Of a stretch of 20,000 nt of DNA, positions 1,354-8,904 are shown piece by piece. A program made the position numbers and the translations under genes. The notes beneath the pieces were generated by a model. The model was not told the origin of the DNA, did no database searches, and saw nothing but the letters and a program-made list of their open reading frames with translations. Position 1 is the stretch's first letter; each line of letters starts with the position of its first letter. The DNA is from an uncultured virus (IMG/VR IMGVR_UViG_3300033141_000684) (Duplodnaviria; Heunggongvirae; Uroviricota; Caudoviricetes): the IMG/VR virus record IMGVR_UViG_3300033141_000684. One strand, 5' to 3'.

Positions 1354-1639
1354 CGGCGTGCTCGTCGTGGTATTTAATGACGTGCTTGCGCACCGCTTCG
1401 ATCATCTCTTCGCTCACTGGCAGCTCGCGCAGGGCGTGCATCACCGTTGTATGGTGTCGGTTCACGAAGTAACCGATCGACGGCAGCGAAAGCTCTTGAT
1501 CACGCAAGAGCCTCATGGCAAGCCAGCGGGGCGTGACCAGCATCGTCGACCGTGACTTGCCGAGCACTTGCTTCTCAGGCACTCGAAAATAATCGCATAC
1601 GCCTGCAATGATCAGGCTCGGGTCTTGTGGTCTCATCAT
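1346..1639 (-). CDS. stand-alone DnaA C-terminal (domain IV) helix-turn-helix protein
   Basis: IIAGVCDYFRV...VLGKSRS...PRWLAMRLLRD...SLPSIGYFVNRHHTTVMHA follows the Bac_DnaA_C signature (R.R....PRQ.AMYL.R....SL..IG..F.RDHTTV.HA). Confidence 0.85.
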   Translation of the reverse strand: MMRPQDPSLIIAGVCDYFRVPEKQVLGKSRSTMLVTPRWLAMRLLRDQELSLPSIGYFVNRHHTTVMHALRELPVSEEMIEAVRKHVIKYHDEHADD

Positions 1640-3303
1640 TAGAACGGTATCTCGTCTTCGCCGATGCTATCCCAGTCAGGCAGGATAGGCTCGGGCGGTT
1701 TTACAGGTTCGAACGCGAAGTCGTACTTCACGATCCGATCATACTTGCCCTCTTTCCTGACCATGATGCGGCCGGGCTTTTTGAGGTACTCCCGGCCGAG
1801 CAAGACGTGCTCAGTCGTGGATTCTGCCGACGTCGCCGGGTCGATGCCTCGATCGGTCAGCCAGCGGGTCGCCTTCGTCTTCGCATAGCCTTCATGATCA
1901 GGGCAGACCCATTCGTCGAAGAACTGCAGGCCGCAGCGGTAGGTCACCTTGACCGAGTCAGGCTTGCCGAGCTTCTCGTGCCGGCGGTAGGTCACCTCGT
2001 TCACCTCGAACCATTCAGGCTGAGCCAGTGTCGAGATGATCGCTTGCGTGCTTGCCGTCTCTTCGTGCTTGGGCGGCCAGACATACTGACAATGTGGGCA
2101 GATGCGCGCATTGACTGCAACGATCGCATGGCAGTCTGGGCACTCTTTCGTCGGGGCCGTGCCGGCGAGTTCGACCTCGCCTGCAACGCCGCCGAGCTTG
2201 TCGATAATGTTGATCGTGTCGACCGGGCCGTGCCGGTTCACATTGCCGGCGAAGTCGAGCACGAGGCAGTCTTGCTTGCCGTTCTCTGGGTTGAGCCGCA
2301 TGCCTCGGCCGCACATCTGAATATAGAGCGCCGCCGACTGAGTCGGTCTCAAGAAAGCGATCAGGTCGCAGATCGGCGCATCGAAGCCGGTCGTCAAGAT
2401 GTCGCAGTTCGTGAGGCACTTGATCCTGCCGGCCTTGAACTCTGAGATGATATGCTCGCGCTCATCTTTGGGCGTCTCGCCGTGAAGGCATTCAGAGACG
2501 ACGCCGTGCCGCGAGCGCATGAAGTCAGCGACGTCTTGCGCGTACTCGACGCCAGGGCAGAACACGAGCCAGGCGTTGCGGTCTTGGCCGTACTCGACGA
2601 TCTCGGCGCAGGCTGCCACCTTCACGCGGGTCGCCTCGTCGACCATGTCGGACGTCTTGAAGTCGCCGCGCACCGTCTTCATGCCGTCGGTATTCATTCT
2701 CTCGACGCCGGCCTTCGAGATCAGGGGCACGAGATGGCCTTCGTCGATCAGCCTGGTGATCGGCAGGTTGTAGGCGATGTCAGTGAAGAGCGCGTCGTCG
2801 CCAGTATGCAAAAAGCCAGAGTCGAGCCTGAACGGCGTCGCGCTGAAGCCGATGACCTTGACCTTGTCGTTGATGGTCATCATGTCATCGAGAAAGCGCC
2901 GATACATCGTGTCGTTCTTGGCGGGCACGAGATGCGCTTCGTCGATCGTGATCAGGTCGAACCGGCCGAGCTGGTCGGCCTTGTTGTGCACCGATTGAAT
3001 GCCGGCGAAGATCATCGGGTTGAATCGGTCGCGGCGCTTCATGCCGGCGCTGTTGATGCCGATGTCAATCTGCGGGCTGAGCCGCGACATAGTCACCGAG
3101 TTCTGCTCTATCAGCTCTTTGACGTGCGTTAGTGACAGTATGCGCTGGCCCGGCCAGCCGAGAATGACGTCGCTGCAAAAGCTCGCGTGAATGACAGACT
3201 TGCCGCCGCCGGTCGGGACAACAGCCAGCGGGTGACCGTTGTGCGAAGAGAAGTAATTGAAGAGCGCGTTCTTGCACTCTGATTGATAACCTCGAAGCTG
3301 CAC
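1639..3303 (-). CDS. SF2 DEAH helicase, RadD/YejH-like, with zinc finger
   Basis: Q motif LRGYQ, Walker A PTGGGKS, DEAH, SAT, motif V LTTGFDAP, motif VI QMCGRGMR, CPDC..CPHC zinc ribbon, DEIPF end. Start placed at GTG 3303 (TAGTG overlap with the upstream stop, GAGGG RBS) instead of 3348. Confidence 0.93.
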   Translation of the reverse strand: MQLRGYQSECKNALFNYFSSHNGHPLAVVPTGGGKSVIHASFCSDVILGWPGQRILSLTHVKELIEQNSVTMSRLSPQIDIGINSAGMKRRDRFNPMIFAGIQSVHNKADQLGRFDLITIDEAHLVPAKNDTMYRRFLDDMMTINDKVKVIGFSATPFRLDSGFLHTGDDALFTDIAYNLPITRLIDEGHLVPLISKAGVERMNTDGMKTVRGDFKTSDMVDEATRVKVAACAEIVEYGQDRNAWLVFCPGVEYAQDVADFMRSRHGVVSECLHGETPKDEREHIISEFKAGRIKCLTNCDILTTGFDAPICDLIAFLRPTQSAALYIQMCGRGMRLNPENGKQDCLVLDFAGNVNRHGPVDTINIIDKLGGVAGEVELAGTAPTKECPDCHAIVAVNARICPHCQYVWPPKHEETASTQAIISTLAQPEWFEVNEVTYRRHEKLGKPDSVKVTYRCGLQFFDEWVCPDHEGYAKTKATRWLTDRGIDPATSAESTTEHVLLGREYLKKPGRIMVRKEGKYDRIVKYDFAFEPVKPPEPILPDWDSIGEDEIPF

Positions 3304-3623
3304 TAGGTCATCGCCCTCAACTGGTTGGTGAGTTTCGTTCTGAGGCACTTCGCTGCAGACGTGGCTGCGGCGAGCTGCGACTCTAAACTCTCAAGGTAGC
3401 CGTGCCGCTGTAACAACATTTCAGCCGCGAGAACGTGCTCGACCTTGATGGCGTGCGGATTCTCAAGCCGGTATCTGATCGCCTGGGTTGAGATTCCGAG
3501 GGCGCGAGCGACCTCGATGAATCTGGCGTTGTTGGCTCTCGGGTGCGTCTTCGGCAAAGTGTCGGCCAAGCTCTCGACGAGCGTCGCGTACCGATTGCTC
3601 AAAGCAATCTGGCTATTTTCCAT
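3303..3623 (-). CDS. putative HTH DNA-binding protein
   Basis: FIEVARALGISTQAIRYRLENP is HTH-like; coupled to both neighbours. Confidence 0.7.
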   Translation of the reverse strand: MENSQIALSNRYATLVESLADTLPKTHPRANNARFIEVARALGISTQAIRYRLENPHAIKVEHVLAAEMLLQRHGYLESLESQLAAATSAAKCLRTKLTNQLRAMT

Positions 3624-3855
3624 GTCTAACGATCCTGAGATGCTTGCGGCCGGCCCCGAAGTCTAGCACTCCATAGCCGTCTGGTATAGCTTGAACGCAG
3701 CCGCCTTTCTCAAGAAAGGCTTGAACGTCTGCCGCGATCTTGTCTCTGACTCGCTGCTTGTTCTCGACCGGGTCTTCTGCCGCGTCTTGCGCGTGCTTGA
3801 TCGGGCCGCTTGTCGTTGTCATGGGCGCGAGCCCTTTGCCGAATCTACTGCTCAT
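3613..3855 (-). CDS. SutA RNA-polymerase-binding-domain-like protein
   Basis: KQRVRDKIAADVQAFLEKGGCVQAIP resembles the SutA RNAP-binding core (K..ER..L...MEEFL..GG.VQ.I). Confidence 0.65.
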   Translation of the reverse strand: MSSRFGKGLAPMTTTSGPIKHAQDAAEDPVENKQRVRDKIAADVQAFLEKGGCVQAIPDGYGVLDFGAGRKHLRIVRHGK

Positions 3856-4916
3856 TCTGTTACCTCGTGGGTCTCGATTAGTGTGCCGTTGAACTCTTGC
3901 TTCAGCGTGTCGACGACCTCGTCGCCGATCATGTTCTTCGCGTCTGCCTTGTATATCTCGACCGAGCTGTATCCGGTCGGGCCGTTCTTAAATACCTTGC
4001 CGGTGATCTTGTTCGTGTAGACGACGTCGTCGTCGATCGCGTCGATCGGCTCTGCCCACGTCTCAAGCATCTGGGGCAAGTAGGCGTGCGAGGCGCAGCC
4101 GTTCATCTGCTGATTCTTGTCGAGCTGCAGGTTGTACTTCTCGCAGAGCCAGGTCGCCTCACCGTCGGGCGCTGCAGTCGCATGCACGCATGACCTGCAG
4201 GTCGGGACGGGTGCGGCTTTAGAATGGCAGGTCGCGCTATGGTCGCAGAAGTTACACTGCCACCATGCCGGGTCGTCAGAGATGCGCGCCGGCGGTTCGA
4301 CTGACTCGATGATCGTGCGCGCTCGCTCCATGATCTGCACGAACTCTTTCTTGTTGAATTTGACGCGCTCAATGTAGAGGTCGTCGTCATTCTTGTTGAC
4401 GGCCATATAGAGCGCCCGGTCGATTGAGCTGAGGCCCATATAAACCTGCATCTGCGCATAGTGCTCGGGCTTCGACTGCTCGACGCCATCCTTCACGAGT
4501 GACTTGAAGCTCTTATCGTTGTGCGTCTTCATCTCGATAATGTGCGGGCTCTTCGGGGCTTCGGGCACGCCTTCGGTCGCGATGCCGTCACCGCTGCCGC
4601 CGAAGTGACCGCCGTGCGCTGACCATTGCCATTGTTCGCTGGTGCGCGGGTCGATCTCAACGACCTCGACGCCGATGCGCTTCAACTCTTCAACGAAGAC
4701 CGCCTCTTCTCGCTGGCCTCGATTGAACAGGCGCAGCACGCGACCGGGAAAGTTCGCGACCGTCGACCATCTGAACGAATACCAGATTGAGCGCGTGCAC
4801 GGCCGGCCGATGATCGACGCGCCGAGGTGCTCTCTGAATCCGTTGCCGGCCCGGTCTTCCCAGCTCTTGAAGATCAGGTTGCGCGTGTTGTGCGTTGGCT
4901 CGGGCATTACCGCCAT
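3852..4916 (-). CDS. Cas4-like PD-(D/E)xK phage exonuclease with Fe-S cluster cysteines
   Basis: LGASIIGRPC.R, GSGDG...IIEMKT, HYAQMQVYM, CNFCDHSATC, plus an extra CRSC...C...C cluster; Sak4/SSB/helicase neighbourhood. Confidence 0.9.
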   Translation of the reverse strand: MAVMPEPTHNTRNLIFKSWEDRAGNGFREHLGASIIGRPCTRSIWYSFRWSTVANFPGRVLRLFNRGQREEAVFVEELKRIGVEVVEIDPRTSEQWQWSAHGGHFGGSGDGIATEGVPEAPKSPHIIEMKTHNDKSFKSLVKDGVEQSKPEHYAQMQVYMGLSSIDRALYMAVNKNDDDLYIERVKFNKKEFVQIMERARTIIESVEPPARISDDPAWWQCNFCDHSATCHSKAAPVPTCRSCVHATAAPDGEATWLCEKYNLQLDKNQQMNGCASHAYLPQMLETWAEPIDAIDDDVVYTNKITGKVFKNGPTGYSSVEIYKADAKNMIGDEVVDTLKQEFNGTLIETHEVTE

Positions 4917-4947: not shown

Positions 4948-5553
4948 TCATGCCGCTCTTCTGCCGAGTATGTTGTGCTCCGGGTCGAAGACGTCGATCA
5001 ATAGGTATTCTAACTGCGTGAGCTGCCTGTCAGCGAGGCTCGCGCCGTCGACATACAAGACCCCATCGAAGCATTTGTCTTTAATGTGTTGCCCTGATCT
5101 CTGTAATGCGCTCACTCGGCTTTGACCAATATAGACGACAGTCTCTTCGAGCATGAGCAGGTATATGCCCCTGCCGATGACGGGCGAGCGCGAGAATCTT
5201 ATCTCTGAGATCGGCCCGCCTATATCGTAAGGAAAAAACTGATCGCCGTATAACTCGCAGTCTGCTGCGATTGAGACCATTCTGATCTCGGCCTTGATCT
5301 GGTCGGCAACGATCTTTCTCTCGCAATCTTCAGAGCAAGCGAAACGGGCGCTCGACGACGGCGGGCCGTCGTCGTCACTCTCATACTCTCGCAAGTCGCA
5401 GGGCGACCACGTCACGAGCGAAAGCTCGGGCGGATATGGCGCATATAATCTTGACGGGAAAGTTCGCCAACATCCACAACAATGGAGGTCATCGCGAGGG
5501 CCGAACTTTTTCGCGGCGCGACTACCTTGAAGAACTGCTGGAAGTTTTGCCAT
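4948..5553 (-). CDS. GIY-YIG endonuclease with N-terminal Cys-rich (Zn-finger-like) domain
   Basis: RGIYLLMLEETVVYIGQS...QRSGQH...LEYLLIDVFDPEHN has the GIY, YIG, R, H, E and N residues; N-terminal CCGC...FACSEDC. ATG at 5553 overlaps the upstream stop (TGATG). Confidence 0.8.
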   Translation of the reverse strand: MAKLPAVLQGSRAAKKFGPRDDLHCCGCWRTFPSRLYAPYPPELSLVTWSPCDLREYESDDDGPPSSSARFACSEDCERKIVADQIKAEIRMVSIAADCELYGDQFFPYDIGGPISEIRFSRSPVIGRGIYLLMLEETVVYIGQSRVSALQRSGQHIKDKCFDGVLYVDGASLADRQLTQLEYLLIDVFDPEHNILGRRAA

Positions 5554-6530
5554 CACCAAGCCCTCCAAAGATCTCGCAGCAACCGCTTCTGCACGTAACG
5601 GTTCGCTCTGTTGTGAATGTGGCCGACGCTCATATACAAGTGAGCCTCAGCTTTCGGAATCTGGGCCGCCGGCAAAACGATCAGACCCTTCGCTTCTGCG
5701 CGCTCGGTCTCGATCACCTTGCGGGCGTCGCGGGCGTCGCGGTACTTGTTAGCCTTGCGGGTGAGCGCGTCACCGATGACATACATGAGCGAGCGCCTGA
5801 GTGGTGAGTAACCTTGCTCGATGCCTCGCTGCCCGGTCATGCGTCGCTGGCGTTCGCCGTTGATCACCGCCAAACCGAACCGTTTCCAGAGCTTCGACTC
5901 GTTCGAGTAATTGTCGAGCGGGCCTGACTCGCCGATGATCATAGCAAGGCCGAGCGGGCCGAAGCCGTTTATCGGCTCGGCAAACTCTTCCCAGACGGGC
6001 AGCTCTTTGACGACCTTCTTGAGTATGCGCTCGCGTCGCTTTTTCTCAGCCGTGAGCGGCTCACGCGCTTCGAGCATGGGGCCGATGTTCGCCGCAGCGA
6101 TAACACCGAGCGGGTGCTCTTCGTTCTTGACGACGGCAGTGTAGAGCGCCTGGCCTTCTTTCGTACCGCCAGCAAGTCGCCGGCAGATGGACTTCGCCTG
6201 TAGCGTGATTCGCTGCTCTGCGCCCATCATGTCAGAGCGTGCGCGATGGTGCTCCCGCAGCTCTGCGCATAAGATTGCCCGGCCTAATCTGGTATGGTCG
6301 TCTCCGACGGCGCTATAGGGGGCCGGGCTTGAACCTGCAGCGGAACTAGAAGTTTGGTCGGTTTCGACAATGTAGAATTGACCGCTGCGTGACTGGACGC
6401 CTCCCGGCTGGGCGAGCTTTGATTGGCCCTTCTTAGGCACTACTCGGTCGGCCGGGCCGGGGGCGTTAATAGGGTGAGCGGCAACGCTGAGTTTGGCCGC
6501 CTTTGCGGCAATGGTTTTCTGACCGCTCAT
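5553..6530 (-). CDS. TasA-like IS110/Nop-domain RNA-binding protein lacking a nuclease domain
   Basis: Coiled coil (LREHHRARSDMMGAEQRITLQ) then IS116/IS110/IS902-type C-terminal motifs (PINGFGPLGLAMIIGESG..NYSNESKLWKRFGL, GYSPLRRSLMY, HNRANRYVQKRLLRDLWRAW). No DEDD/RuvC domain and no catalytic SG loop after GL. The first ~85 codons coincide with the guide array. Confidence 0.85.
   Translation of the reverse strand: MSGQKTIAAKAAKLSVAAHPINAPGPADRVVPKKGQSKLAQPGGVQSRSGQFYIVETDQTSSSAAGSSPAPYSAVGDDHTRLGRAILCAELREHHRARSDMMGAEQRITLQAKSICRRLAGGTKEGQALYTAVVKNEEHPLGVIAAANIGPMLEAREPLTAEKKRRERILKKVVKELPVWEEFAEPINGFGPLGLAMIIGESGPLDNYSNESKLWKRFGLAVINGERQRRMTGQRGIEQGYSPLRRSLMYVIGDALTRKANKYRDARDARKVIETERAEAKGLIVLPAAQIPKAEAHLYMSVGHIHNRANRYVQKRLLRDLWRAW
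6277..6529 (-). ncRNA. TIGR-like stem-loop guide RNA array, 4 units
   Basis: Minus-strand units share stem-(CCA-like)-N9-(TG-like)-hairpin-CCA-N9/10-(TG-like)-stem. U1 6475-6529: TGAGCGG TCA GAAAACCAT TG CCGC AAAG GCGG CCA AACTCAGCGT TG CCGCTCA. U2 6398-6465: CGCCCCCGGCCCGG CCG ACCGAGTAG TG CCT AAGA AGG G CCA ATCAAAGCT CG CCCAGCCGGGAGGCG. U3 6337-6388: GCAGCGG TCA ATTCTACAT TG TCG AAAC CGA CCA AACTTCTAG TT CCGCTGC. U4 6277-6328: GCCCGGC CCC CTATAGCGC CG TCG GAGA CGA CCA TACCAGATT AG GCCGGGC. Confidence 0.85.
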
Positions 6531-7045
6531 AATCCGAACCTCGTCGCGAGGTTGCTCAACTGTTGCTCACCGAACACTTCGGCGACCGTGCGGTTACCGA
6601 CCCGGTAGAGCAGGTTCGCGTAGAACGCGCCGAGATTGCTCTCGTTGCGGGCTCGATCTTTGTGGTGATCGGCTGCGCGAGAGAGTAAGTCGCGGTTGGC
6701 ATCACCGAGGCGTGAGCCGTTGAAGAGCTTCATGTCGAGCATGCTGCGACGGCCGGCTGCGACGAGCGCCGGGTCTGGTTGCCGGGGCTCGATCTTGACG
6801 ACCTTAGTCGAAGGCGTCGGCTCTTTGGTGACGACGTCGGTCGCTGGCTTATCTAGCTGCTTGATCAGCTCCCAGATAGCGAGGTCTAACTTCGGGCGCA
6901 AGAGCGTCTTAAAGAGAACACTGTCGGCCATCACTCGCCGCTCGATCGCTTCGGCGGCTTCGGTTCTGGTCGCTGACTCTTCGATGATTTTAATCGCCAT
7001 CGAGCGCAGGCGTGTCAGAGCGAGCGGGTCTTTCTCAGTTTGCAT
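6527..7045 (-). CDS. hypothetical protein coupled to the Tas-like gene (candidate accessory factor)
   Basis: 172 aa; its TGA overlaps the Tas ATG (ATGA); helical N-domain, Pro/Thr linker, C-domain MLDMKLFNGSRLGDANRDLL...TVAEVFGEQQL. Confidence 0.75.
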   Translation of the reverse strand: MQTEKDPLALTRLRSMAIKIIEESATRTEAAEAIERRVMADSVLFKTLLRPKLDLAIWELIKQLDKPATDVVTKEPTPSTKVVKIEPRQPDPALVAAGRRSMLDMKLFNGSRLGDANRDLLSRAADHHKDRARNESNLGAFYANLLYRVGNRTVAEVFGEQQLSNLATRFGL

Positions 7046-7304
7046 CGCGAACCTCTCTGCGTTCTTCTGCGACGCCTGCGTAATAGTAGCCGGCTTGCTG
7101 GGCGGCGTGGTTGCGCTTGTTGCGCTCAGCGCGTCGGTTGCGCTTGCGGTTCGCCTTTATCTGCATCTCGATCACCGTGTCGGGGCTCGGCTTGGGCGGC
7201 ATTATTGTGCGACCGCTTGGCTCGCCGACTGCGCGTTCGAGCGCGTCAGAGATCGCCTTGAAAAAACCGGCCTGGTGTTGCCGTGCAACTTGTTTCTGTT
7301 TCAT
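7035..7304 (-). CDS. basic hypothetical protein (89 aa)
   Basis: AAGGCAGGA RBS upstream; Arg/Lys-rich NRKRNRRAERNKRN; overlaps the next ORF. Confidence 0.65.
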   Translation of the reverse strand: MKQKQVARQHQAGFFKAISDALERAVGEPSGRTIMPPKPSPDTVIEMQIKANRKRNRRAERNKRNHAAQQAGYYYAGVAEERREVRDAN

Positions 7305-7336
7305 GTTCCTGCCTTTTCGACTGTTTGTTGAAGGTT

Positions 7337-7395
7337 GAAGGGCCGACCGTGGAGGGGTCAGCCGGCCCTTCGGGGCTCAGCTCAAGGGGAGAGCT
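7337..7395 (-). other. two hairpins with C-rich loops downstream of the SSB gene
   Basis: AGCTC-TCCCCTT-GAGCT (7379-7395) and GAAGGGCCGGCTG-ACCCCTCCA-CGGTCGGCCCTTC (7337-7371; 13 bp with G-U pairs that form only on the minus strand). No U-tract follows. Confidence 0.55.
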
Positions 7396-7396
7396 T

Positions 7397-7936
7397 TTAC
7401 TGAGCCCATGCCGGCCTGTCGCCTGCAGCGGGCGCTACTGGCGGGGCCGTATTGGCTACACCCTGAGCGGGTGCGACTGGGGCGGGCGCGGCCTGTTGTC
7501 CGACGGGTGTCGGGGCTGCGCCGCCCATAGCTGGGGCTAGAGCCGACGCCTTGAACTTCTTGATGATGTTCTTGTCGTCGTACTGGCCGGTCTTGTCGAC
7601 CTCGATGCCGACCGCACCGATGAACGGCTTGTCGTGCAACTGCGTGCTATCGCTGACCTGCATCACGCCGACAGCTCGGCAAAGGCCAGACAGCTCGCGC
7701 TGACCGATCTCTTCTGCGGTCGGGTTCTGGTTTGCGATGTTGATGCGGCCGAAAATCTTGCGGCCGGCATACTGACCCTCAAGCACCTCGGCCTCGTATT
7801 CGAGATAGTGTCCGGTGCCGGCCTTGGTCGGCTTGATGTCGGTCGAGCGAATGCAGAGCAAATAGTCGCCTTTCGGGAAGGTATCGTATGAGCTGCTCGG
7901 GTCTACTTGGGAAGCGTCAAAATTCATTTGAGCCAT
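7397..7936 (-). CDS. DUF669-family phage single-stranded DNA-binding protein
   Basis: MNFDASQVDP..YDTFPKGDY...K.TKAGTGHYL...VLEGQYAGRKIF..INI.NQNPTAEEIGQRELSGLCRAVG; Pro/Ala tail ending PAW; follows the Sak4-like gene. Confidence 0.88.
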   Translation of the reverse strand: MAQMNFDASQVDPSSSYDTFPKGDYLLCIRSTDIKPTKAGTGHYLEYEAEVLEGQYAGRKIFGRINIANQNPTAEEIGQRELSGLCRAVGVMQVSDSTQLHDKPFIGAVGIEVDKTGQYDDKNIIKKFKASALAPAMGGAAPTPVGQQAAPAPVAPAQGVANTAPPVAPAAGDRPAWAQ

Positions 7937-7966
7937 TGTTTTTTCACCTATAGGTTGTTGTCAAAA

Positions 7967-8085: not shown

Positions 8086-8904
8086 TTACCCGGCAGCCGC
8101 CACCTGATCACCCTCGTCGGGCGCTGCAGGTTCAGGCTGGGGTTGTGCCGCTGAGGTCTTGCGCGTCAGCGCGAGCGCCTCTTCGAAGGCCTGCCAGTTC
8201 AACGGCAGCTCTTCGGGCAGAGAGTATCGGTTCTTCGCAACAAAGGCCGGCTTCTCGACGGTATACATGACACGCTCGCCGGTCGTAATGCCTCGGGCGC
8301 GTGACTTGTTGAAGCCCTGGTCTTCTTTCAAGACGTGCATCTTGTGATTAGCGAAGAGGATGACATCGACAAGCTCTTGCACCATGCCGTTAGCCCGCTT
8401 GTGCAACTTGATGTCGTAGCGGTCGAAGGCTTCGTGCTCTGGCGATTCGAACTTGAGAATCTGCGCGTGCGCCGTCAGGATCACCGCCATATTCTTGTGA
8501 TTGCGAAGCGCGTCGAGCAACCAGATAATCTGACGCCAATAGACGTCGGCCTCAACATAGCCCTTGCCGTAGCCGGGGCTCTCGATAGAGTCCCAGCCGT
8601 GGGCCTCGCAGGTCTTTTGCCAGACGAGCGGCTCAAGGTGATCGAGCGAGTCGATGACGACGGTCTTATAGTCGTGGTCACCCTCGCCGAGCGCGTTAAG
8701 CGCAGAGATGACGTCGTCGTAGCTCTGAGCTATGCCGAAAGTGTCGATCTCAAGTGAGCCTTCACCGTCTTCGGTTTGAATGAAGATAGGCTTCGGCGCG
8801 TTCGCTGCGAACGTCGTCTTGCCCATGCCGTGCGTCGAATAAATCAACGTGCGCGGCGGTTTGGTGTCGCTAGTGCGACGAATTGAATCGAGGGCGAATG
8901 CCAT
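8086..8904 (-). CDS. Sak4-like AAA_24 ATPase (phage single-strand annealing protein)
   Basis: PPRTLIYSTHGMGKTTFAANAPKPIFIQTEDG (Walker A), YKTVVIDSLDHLE (Walker B), GYGKGY, AKNRYSLP. Confidence 0.9.
   Translation of the reverse strand: MAFALDSIRRTSDTKPPRTLIYSTHGMGKTTFAANAPKPIFIQTEDGEGSLEIDTFGIAQSYDDVISALNALGEGDHDYKTVVIDSLDHLEPLVWQKTCEAHGWDSIESPGYGKGYVEADVYWRQIIWLLDALRNHKNMAVILTAHAQILKFESPEHEAFDRYDIKLHKRANGMVQELVDVILFANHKMHVLKEDQGFNKSRARGITTGERVMYTVEKPAFVAKNRYSLPEELPLNWQAFEEALALTRKTSAAQPQPEPAAPDEGDQVAAAG

Follow-up and report, generated by a model that had tools for sequence, protein, structure and literature searches.

A short stem-loop guide array within the first codons of a phage tasA gene, and the case for its translation

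Can one stretch of RNA serve both as an array of guides and as coding sequence for the protein that uses them? The question is raised by a locus in a 20,000-nucleotide (nt) stretch of DNA (here called the window) from the uncultured virus IMGVR_UViG_3300033141_000684 (Caudoviricetes). The window belongs to the genome of a phage, in which Pfam and PHROG assignments place a minus-strand replication and recombination module around a gene for a protein of the TIGR-Tas family, tasA. A first-pass annotation made from the letters alone had proposed that four hairpin guide units are embedded in frame at the beginning of the gene for their own effector, that the same RNA is messenger and guide precursor, and that guide processing or effector binding would shut off translation of the effector. 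The follow-up reported here bears out the embedding: judged by its sequence features, this is a TIGR-TasA locus in a phage, of the stem-loop type, with a short array lying within the first ~85 codons of tasA. The open reading frame (ORF) runs from 6530 to 5553 without an in-frame stop in the array, as had been claimed, and the in-frame placement inside the effector gene is supported by the match of the product to the Tas family, by a predicted conserved helix that begins before the next in-frame ATG, by a conserved stop-start overlap at the proposed beginning of the gene, and by an excess of open tas frames in related loci. The coordinates of all features are collected in Table 1.

The 325-residue product of the ORF gave a weak Pfam match to the IS110-type family PF02371 (E=0.033) and no other. 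In a search against the PDB, a profile built from 29 homologues matched 9mty_A with E=1.2e-17 over profile positions 133 to 303, in the C-terminal domain; this PDB entry is the structure of TaTasR from Faure et al. 2025, so named in the preprint of Xu et al. (bioRxiv 10.64898/2026.09.09.750476). An AlphaFold2 model of the protein (mean predicted local distance difference test score, pLDDT, 83.9; predicted template modeling score, pTM, 0.73) leaves residues 1 to 77 disordered at a pLDDT of ~40, followed by a long helix (residues 78 to 120) and a well-predicted helical domain; the two long helices, 78 to 120 and 142 to 174, have pLDDT values above 95. Foldseek comparison of the model with the PDB ranked TasR (9mty) first, with E=5e-7, and TasH entries next, with E~1e-4 (9w03, E=6e-5), all with a probability of 1.00. 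The IS621 recombinase (8wt9, E=5e-3) appeared at lower rank, and Nop5 and Prp31 stood well below. Residues 78 to 325 are thus modeled as a coiled-coil helix pair and a Nop-type RNA-binding domain. Pfam detected no RuvC or HNH nuclease domain and the model contains no additional folded domain, so the protein is of the TasA type, and the ORF at 5553 to 6530 is assigned to tasA on this combination of profile and fold matches. The family is large, with 2,710 cluster representatives at E<=0.001 in an exhaustive search; its members have predicted lengths of 225 to 675 residues, and the conserved part is always C-terminal.

TIGR-Tas systems and their stem-loop array type were defined by Faure et al. 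2025 (PMC12045711), who describe the stem-loop tigRNAs as having two spacers of 8 to 12 nt, with box C (CCA) and box D (UG) on their flanks and a variable palindrome that closes the unit. In the window, positions 6277 to 6529 on the minus strand hold four hairpins with long loops, which cover codons 1 to 85 of the tasA ORF. Unit 1 consists, in order, of a 7-bp outer stem, UCA at the box C position, a 9-nt spacer A, UG, an inner hairpin, CCA, a 10-nt spacer B, UG, and the closing strand of the outer stem. Unit 3 has the same order with a 7-bp outer stem, UCA, a 9-nt spacer A, UG, an inner hairpin, CCA, a 9-nt spacer B, and UU before the closing strand. Unit 2 has the two-tier hairpin shape, but its box motifs are out of register. 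Folding of the minus-strand RNA from 6270 to 6556 gave a hairpin around the GAGG motif upstream of the gene and four two-tier stem-loops in both the minimum free energy (MFE) and the centroid structures, with a z-score of -3.72; none of 200 dinucleotide shuffles was as stable.

The relation of these hairpins to units elsewhere in the family was assessed with sequence motifs and covariance models. In 86 non-redundant related loci, a strict unit motif derived from units 1 and 3 had 26 occurrences on the tas strand and 5 on the opposite strand, compared with 2.6 per shuffled replicate, and the units that it matched align nearly without gaps. A covariance model based on these matched units (R1) produced 288 hits (E<=1) in 100 related loci, without exception on the tas strand. 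Because R1 contained the window's own units, a second model (R2) was rebuilt without them. In the 20-kb window, R2 placed unit 3 best (27.5 bits, E=3e-4) and unit 1 second (22.3 bits, E=4e-3), followed by a marginal match to unit 4 (15.6 bits, E=0.14), while unit 2 scored at noise level (9.2 bits, E=3.6). The claim of four units therefore stands for the fold, which is two-tier in all four, and for the agreement of units 1 and 3 with the family model; it is marginal for unit 4 and does not extend to unit 2. We take the array to be genuine on these matches, with two canonical units (units 1 and 3) and two degenerate ones (units 2 and 4). Neither R1 nor R2 found further units elsewhere in the 20-kb window, and the nearest record, G001 (21.6 kb), has a single unit match, which is the known unit 1. 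A tandem-repeat finder did not detect the array, an expected outcome for units with only short motifs in common. A search of the window for self-targets with composites of spacer A and spacer B gave nothing better than 4 mismatches in 18, and inspection by eye did not reveal at the stem bases of units 1 to 4 the conserved CUU that the available text of Xu et al. (10.64898/2026.09.09.750476) reports as a processing mark in some other clades.

Translation of tasA most likely starts at the ATG at 6530, as judged from its context and from comparison with relatives. This ATG overlaps the stop codon of the upstream gene as ATGA (TGA at 6529 to 6527), GAGG (6542 to 6539) stands 8 nt before it, and its TG falls within the 5' strand of the outer stem of unit 1; each of these features had been pointed out in the first-pass annotation and is present in the sequence. 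The GAGG also lies, as had been noted, in a 7-bp hairpin (6553 to 6537), but such hairpins are ordinary here (18 perfect ones in the window versus 9.55 in shuffles), so this hairpin is given little weight. The next in-frame ATG (6230, M101) is indeed inside the helix, in the middle of the predicted segment from 78 to 120. Homologues are conserved from about residue 86 onward; the nearly invariant E93 and the invariant R98 both precede M101, and short homologues begin 6 to 14 codons before the position of E93. Upstream of E93, the only in-frame ATG, GTG, or TTG codons are the ATG at codon 1 and a GTG at codon 31, after which no further canonical start comes before codon 101. The earlier statement that no in-frame start exists between unit 4 and the helix accordingly holds for canonical codons, but the GTG at 6440 to 6438 (V31), inside unit 2, had been overlooked.

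The junction with the upstream gene is retained in relatives, which are cited here by locus number. Homologues of the 172-residue upstream protein, with 30 to 39% identity, are encoded upstream of tas in L003, L100, L081, and L050, and in all five loci with this gene, the window included, a far-upstream in-frame tas ATG overlaps its stop, as ATGA in the window, L003, and L081, by 8 nt in L100, and by 11 nt in L050. In the nearest relative, L003, the upstream protein is 39% and TasA 57% identical to those of the window, the same junction is kept, and the first hairpin begins right after it. Shine-Dalgarno-like motifs were also counted before far-upstream ATGs with a loose pattern and no control, a count that is suggestive at most.

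An alternative pairing was observed around the start codon. When 40 nt more of upstream sequence was included in the fold, the MFE structure paired 6556 to 6585, in the upstream ORF, with 6475 to 6492, the 3' half of unit 1, in place of the unit 1 stem, a possible alternative structure in this region.

Related loci allow the frame to be followed through other arrays. The 86 non-redundant loci were anchored on the codon aligned to E93, and the tas frame was compared with the two control frames; loci within clades are not independent. L001 and L002 are identical to the window over the gene and its flanks and so provide no comparative information. The median number of open codons upstream of the anchor was 98 in the tas frame, versus 31.5 in frame +1 and 16 in frame +2 (Wilcoxon p=2e-9 and 4e-13, respectively). 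The open stretch contained 107 of 166 upstream units in the tas frame, versus 39 and 15 in the +1 and +2 frames, and it contained every unit lying <=450 nt upstream in 38 of 50 loci, versus 13 and 7 in the controls. Across these sequences, arrays interrupt the tas frame far less often than they do the control frames, and the expectation that homologous arrays would keep frame was borne out to that extent; it often does not hold where the start is close to the anchor. Individual units differ less, since 124 of 143 are stop-free in the tas frame and 114 of 143 in frame +1, and much of the frame signal therefore comes from the linkers and from contiguity. The expectation that units would be gained and lost in multiples of 3 found partial support: the spacings of in-frame arrays are not all multiples of 3, and box C occupies two of the three phases.

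The junction between array and helix is fixed in part of the family. The distance from the end of the last unit to the anchor codon is 20, 23, 26, or 29 nt in 18 loci, so that the phase is the same in all of them, and this unit reads Gly-(Gln/His) ... (Gln/His) ... before the conserved helix; the nearest canonical start lies upstream of this last unit in 13 of the 18. Unit 4 of the window, whose 3' half codes for the first turns of the helix of residues 78 to 120, falls in this range, with 23 nt from its end to the E93 codon.

How spacers may change inside such a gene is illustrated by L047 and L054, which are 92% identical in the core gene and whose upstream 330 nt align without a gap. Their stems and box motifs are nearly identical and every 9-nt spacer block differs, with 124 open codons in both; spacers are therefore replaceable in place, with length and frame unchanged. 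The first-pass annotation had argued that new spacers would have to keep the frame open. The exchange without insertion or deletion agrees with this, but the 9-nt length is a property of the guides and not an adaptation to coding, since 9-nt spacers are also found in arrays outside ORFs. The units of L047 and L054 were not detected by R1, which thus misses some unit variants.

An extension on the 3' side was seen in other relatives, where the region from the anchor codon to the first in-frame tas stop holds 36 model matches (for example, at 3297 to 3661 in L028, 3174 to 3349 in L058, 3138 to 3284 in L068, and 3337 to 3551 in L107). In several loci these are beyond the end of the homologous core, and the tas frame seems to continue there through a downstream array.

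A number of observations weigh against translation of the array. The GC content by codon position is flat in the array part (0.635/0.576/0.60), compared with 0.63/0.43/0.75 in the rest of the gene, and since 7.9% of 20,000 array shuffles are stop-free in the tas frame, the open frame in the window alone is weak evidence. The single identical database protein is a 225-residue form that starts at M101, although it derives from a 1,257-nt contig that may stop short of the upstream ATG. About half of the family has no embedded array: the nearest canonical start is <=15 codons from the anchor in 38 of the 86 loci, 16 to 30 codons away in 11, and >30 codons away in 35, with no canonical start before the contig edge in the remaining 2. 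Loci with a close start often carry arrays outside the ORF with in-frame stops (e.g., L033, L056, and L028), so embedding is optional rather than required for function. The trait follows clades in a quick tree, in which one clade of 18 loci (Shimodaira-Hasegawa-like approximate likelihood ratio test support, 95) has no short N termini and another of 12 loci (support, 100) has 11 short forms; the first of these clades counts in favor of embedding. Even in L003, a TTG 6 codons before the anchor could be the start of a short form. These points would fit an array that is an untranslated leader, with TasA starting at M101 or at a non-canonical codon near the helix (ATC at codon 86 or CTG at codon 91) and with a frame that is open by chance; the flat codon-position GC, the shuffles, the 225-residue entry, and the many relatives with short N termini and arrays outside the ORF all speak for it. 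We nevertheless regard a leader as unlikely, because M101 falls in the middle of the helix and downstream of the conserved E93 and R98, because no canonical start is available between codons 31 and 101, because the ATGA at 6530 is kept in L003 and comparable overlaps occur in five of five loci with the same upstream gene, and because a family-wide excess of open tas frames through arrays is not expected of leaders.

Translation might instead begin at the GTG at 6440, which would put unit 1, together with half of unit 2, in the leader and leave units 3 and 4 as the only translated ones. This codon is the canonical start nearest to the conserved core, but by eye it has no Shine-Dalgarno-like motif at the usual distance, whereas the ATG at 6530 follows the GAGG by 8 nt and takes part in the conserved overlap of stop and start, and a start at the GTG seems quite improbable to us. 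The guide nature of the hairpins has been weighed as well, since they might be structure formed by a G+C-rich, low-complexity coding region at the N terminus, or the remains of a decayed array without tigRNA output. Units 2 and 4 are degenerate, box C is UCA rather than CCA in units 1 and 3, no target was found in the window, and the strict motif taken from units 1 and 3 was also used to pick the training units of the covariance models. Against this, a model to which only other loci contributed still recovers units 1 and 3, all 288 matches in relatives are on the tas strand next to tas, and the fold is far more stable than shuffles; we consider it highly improbable that the hairpins are not guides or no longer yield them. 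A test of box C phases is to be read with similar reserve. Units inside ORFs are distributed 2/67/38 over the three phases, and those outside are evenly spread (22/15/22 upstream and 11/10/15 downstream), but 140 of 285 units are stop-free in phase 0, versus 228 and 247 in the other phases; a unit in a stop-prone phase has no chance of being counted as in-ORF, which makes the test partly circular.

With a start at ATG 6530, the locus could work as follows. Ribosomes would initiate at this ATG, coupled to the upstream gene through the ATGA overlap, and pass through the four hairpin units to produce an N-terminal tail, disordered and with a sequence imposed by the RNA (the CA of box C and box C', for example, would be read as Gln or His), before continuing into the coiled coil and the Nop core. 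That translation is coupled in this way and yields such a tail appears probable from the sequence. The same transcript would likely also be a guide precursor, as relatives and the literature suggest, with the units cut out as tigRNAs that are bound by TasA. The weakest step, which we only infer, is that TasA binding or processing of the units lowers TasA synthesis. Since unit 1 holds the AUG, cleavage would part the AUG from the core, and processing could act in this direction; we think this step possible and lean somewhat against it.

Taken together, these elements may be drawn into a switch between two fates at the 5' end of the messenger: a given transcript would be either translated, with ribosomes entering at the AUG in the stem of unit 1, or captured by TasA for cleavage into guides, so that TasA would set both its own level and the ratio of protein to guides. 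In one clade, the in-phase fusion of the last unit to the first helix codon would have persisted among proteins with only ~40% identity while the spacers changed, and turnover would proceed by replacement of 9-nt (3-codon) cassettes within a translated ORF. We offer this joint reading tentatively and hold it to be less likely than not.

Should translation of the tail and processing of the units both take place, a single stretch of RNA would be under dual selection, for guide structure with spacers and for an open frame. Guides and effector would then be made from a common transcript in competition with each other, and the coding frame would limit which spacers can exist. Such a locus could be a simple model for the balance of protein and guides in a minimal RNA-guided system without known adaptation or processing genes, and it adds a clean phage example in which the start codon lies inside a unit. 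There is also a practical consequence, in that gene callers truncate or mis-start genes of this kind, as seen in the difference between the database form and the 325 residues described here.

The in-frame arrangement as such is already known from the preprint of Xu et al. (bioRxiv 10.64898/2026.09.09.750476, 11 September 2026), whose available text describes stem-loop arrays inside tas coding sequences with the frame kept, intragenic units that correspond to disordered regions, a hairpin between the two spacers in some clades, and small-RNA reads from units embedded in the BlTasA coding sequence, and suggests a link between tigRNA maturation and Tas translation. A full-text literature search found no other paper on in-frame arrays. 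The units of the window share with these intragenic arrays the secondary hairpin between the spacers. In BlTasA, the experimental case of that preprint, the intragenic unit is in a wedge loop, whereas in the window the units are in an N-terminal tail, and the present TasA is encoded by a phage, in a replication module, with its start codon in the unit 1 stem and overlapping an upstream stop. Relative to the text of the preprint as available, possible additions are the comparison of the tas frame with control frames, the constant phase at which the last unit joins the helix, the retained overlap of stop and start codons, and the exchange of spacers without gaps.

Among stem-loop systems with arrays outside the gene, the TIGR-TasA of a Peromyscus leucopus gut contig (PMC12045711) resembles the window in having a TasA without a nuclease and tandem stem-loop units with two spacers each, but according to the available text it has 13 units in three subarrays, compared with an array of four units (two degenerate) within the ORF here. 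TaTasR and SpTasH (9MTY and 9W03) have the same coiled-coil and Nop-domain fold, dual spacers of ~9 nt, and CCA and UG anchors; they differ in their RuvC or HNH domains and in their fixed 36-nt units with edge and loop repeats, whereas the protein of the window has no nuclease and its units have variable stems. The weak PF02371 match and the Foldseek match to 8wt9 indicate an RNA-binding domain related to that of IS110/IS621 elements. A further likeness is that, in IS110/IS621, the guide RNA is encoded beside the 5' end of the gene for its protein. These elements have a DEDD/RuvC recombinase domain and one bridge RNA, whereas the window has neither and instead carries an array of small units in the coding frame; the relationship of Tas and IS110/IS621 is discussed by Faure et al. 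(PMC12045711).

Table 1. Features at and around the tasA locus, in window coordinates
Feature	Position	Strand	Basis or remark
Helicase	1639-3348	-	Pfam/PHROG assignment
Cas4-domain exonuclease	3852-4916	-	Pfam/PHROG assignment
Downstream 201-aa ORF	4948..5553	-	ATG 5551-5553 overlaps tasA stop 5553-5555
tasA ORF, 325 codons	5553..6530	-	ORF listing
Next in-frame ATG (M101)	6228..6230	-	Middle of helix 78-120
Unit 4, partly degenerate	6277..6328	-	8-bp outer stem and inner hairpin; inverted repeat, R2
Unit 3	6337..6388	-	Strict pattern scan, R2, fold
Unit 2, degenerate	6403..6461	-	Inverted repeats, fold; encloses in-frame GTG 6438-6440
Unit 1	6475..6529	-	Outer stem TGAGCGG 6529-6523 / CCGCTCA 6481-6475; strict pattern scan, R2, fold
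ATG, most likely start of tasA	6528..6530	-	Overlaps upstream TGA 6527-6529 as ATGA; TG in 5' stem of unit 1
Perfect 7-bp hairpin, 3-nt loop	6537..6553	-	Contains GAGG 6539-6542; within 3' end of upstream ORF
Upstream 172-aa ORF	6527..7045	-	Function not assigned; TGA overlaps tasA start
Homologue of 172-aa ORF in L003	1911-2300 (in L003)		
Two small ORFs	Between DUF669 gene and tasA	-	No assigned function
DUF669/SSB-like protein	7397-7936	-	Pfam/PHROG assignment
Sak4-like annealing protein	8086-8904	-	Pfam/PHROG assignment

Neither of the two ORFs that overlap tasA could be placed in a Pfam or PHROG family, even at E<=10. The upstream 172-residue protein may be a conserved operon partner of this group of TasA proteins, given its recurrence in related loci. 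Homologues of the downstream 201-residue ORF were found only in records identical to the window; by eye, a stretch resembling GIY...YIG is visible near its residue 140. Contigs of four DNA runs covering 5400 to 7100 show 4 single-letter differences, none of them within 6277 to 6530, and no insertions or deletions, and are uninformative on the keeping of the frame.

An Rfam scan of 5000 to 7500 at E<=1 returned nothing except a match to the 6C RNA at 7333 to 7409 on the minus strand, which is below threshold (31 bits versus a gathering score of 47, E=0.15) and sits in the gap between the DUF669 gene and an 89-residue ORF. A promoter scan gave no sigma-70-like site directly upstream of the array and is uninformative as a whole, because it gave 2 sites in total versus 1.2 in shuffles. 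The sole sigma-70-like match on the gene strand near the locus, with 10 of 12 positions, is at 7964 to 7935 (minus strand), just upstream of the DUF669 gene; if this site is a promoter, tasA and its array would belong to a longer operon transcript.

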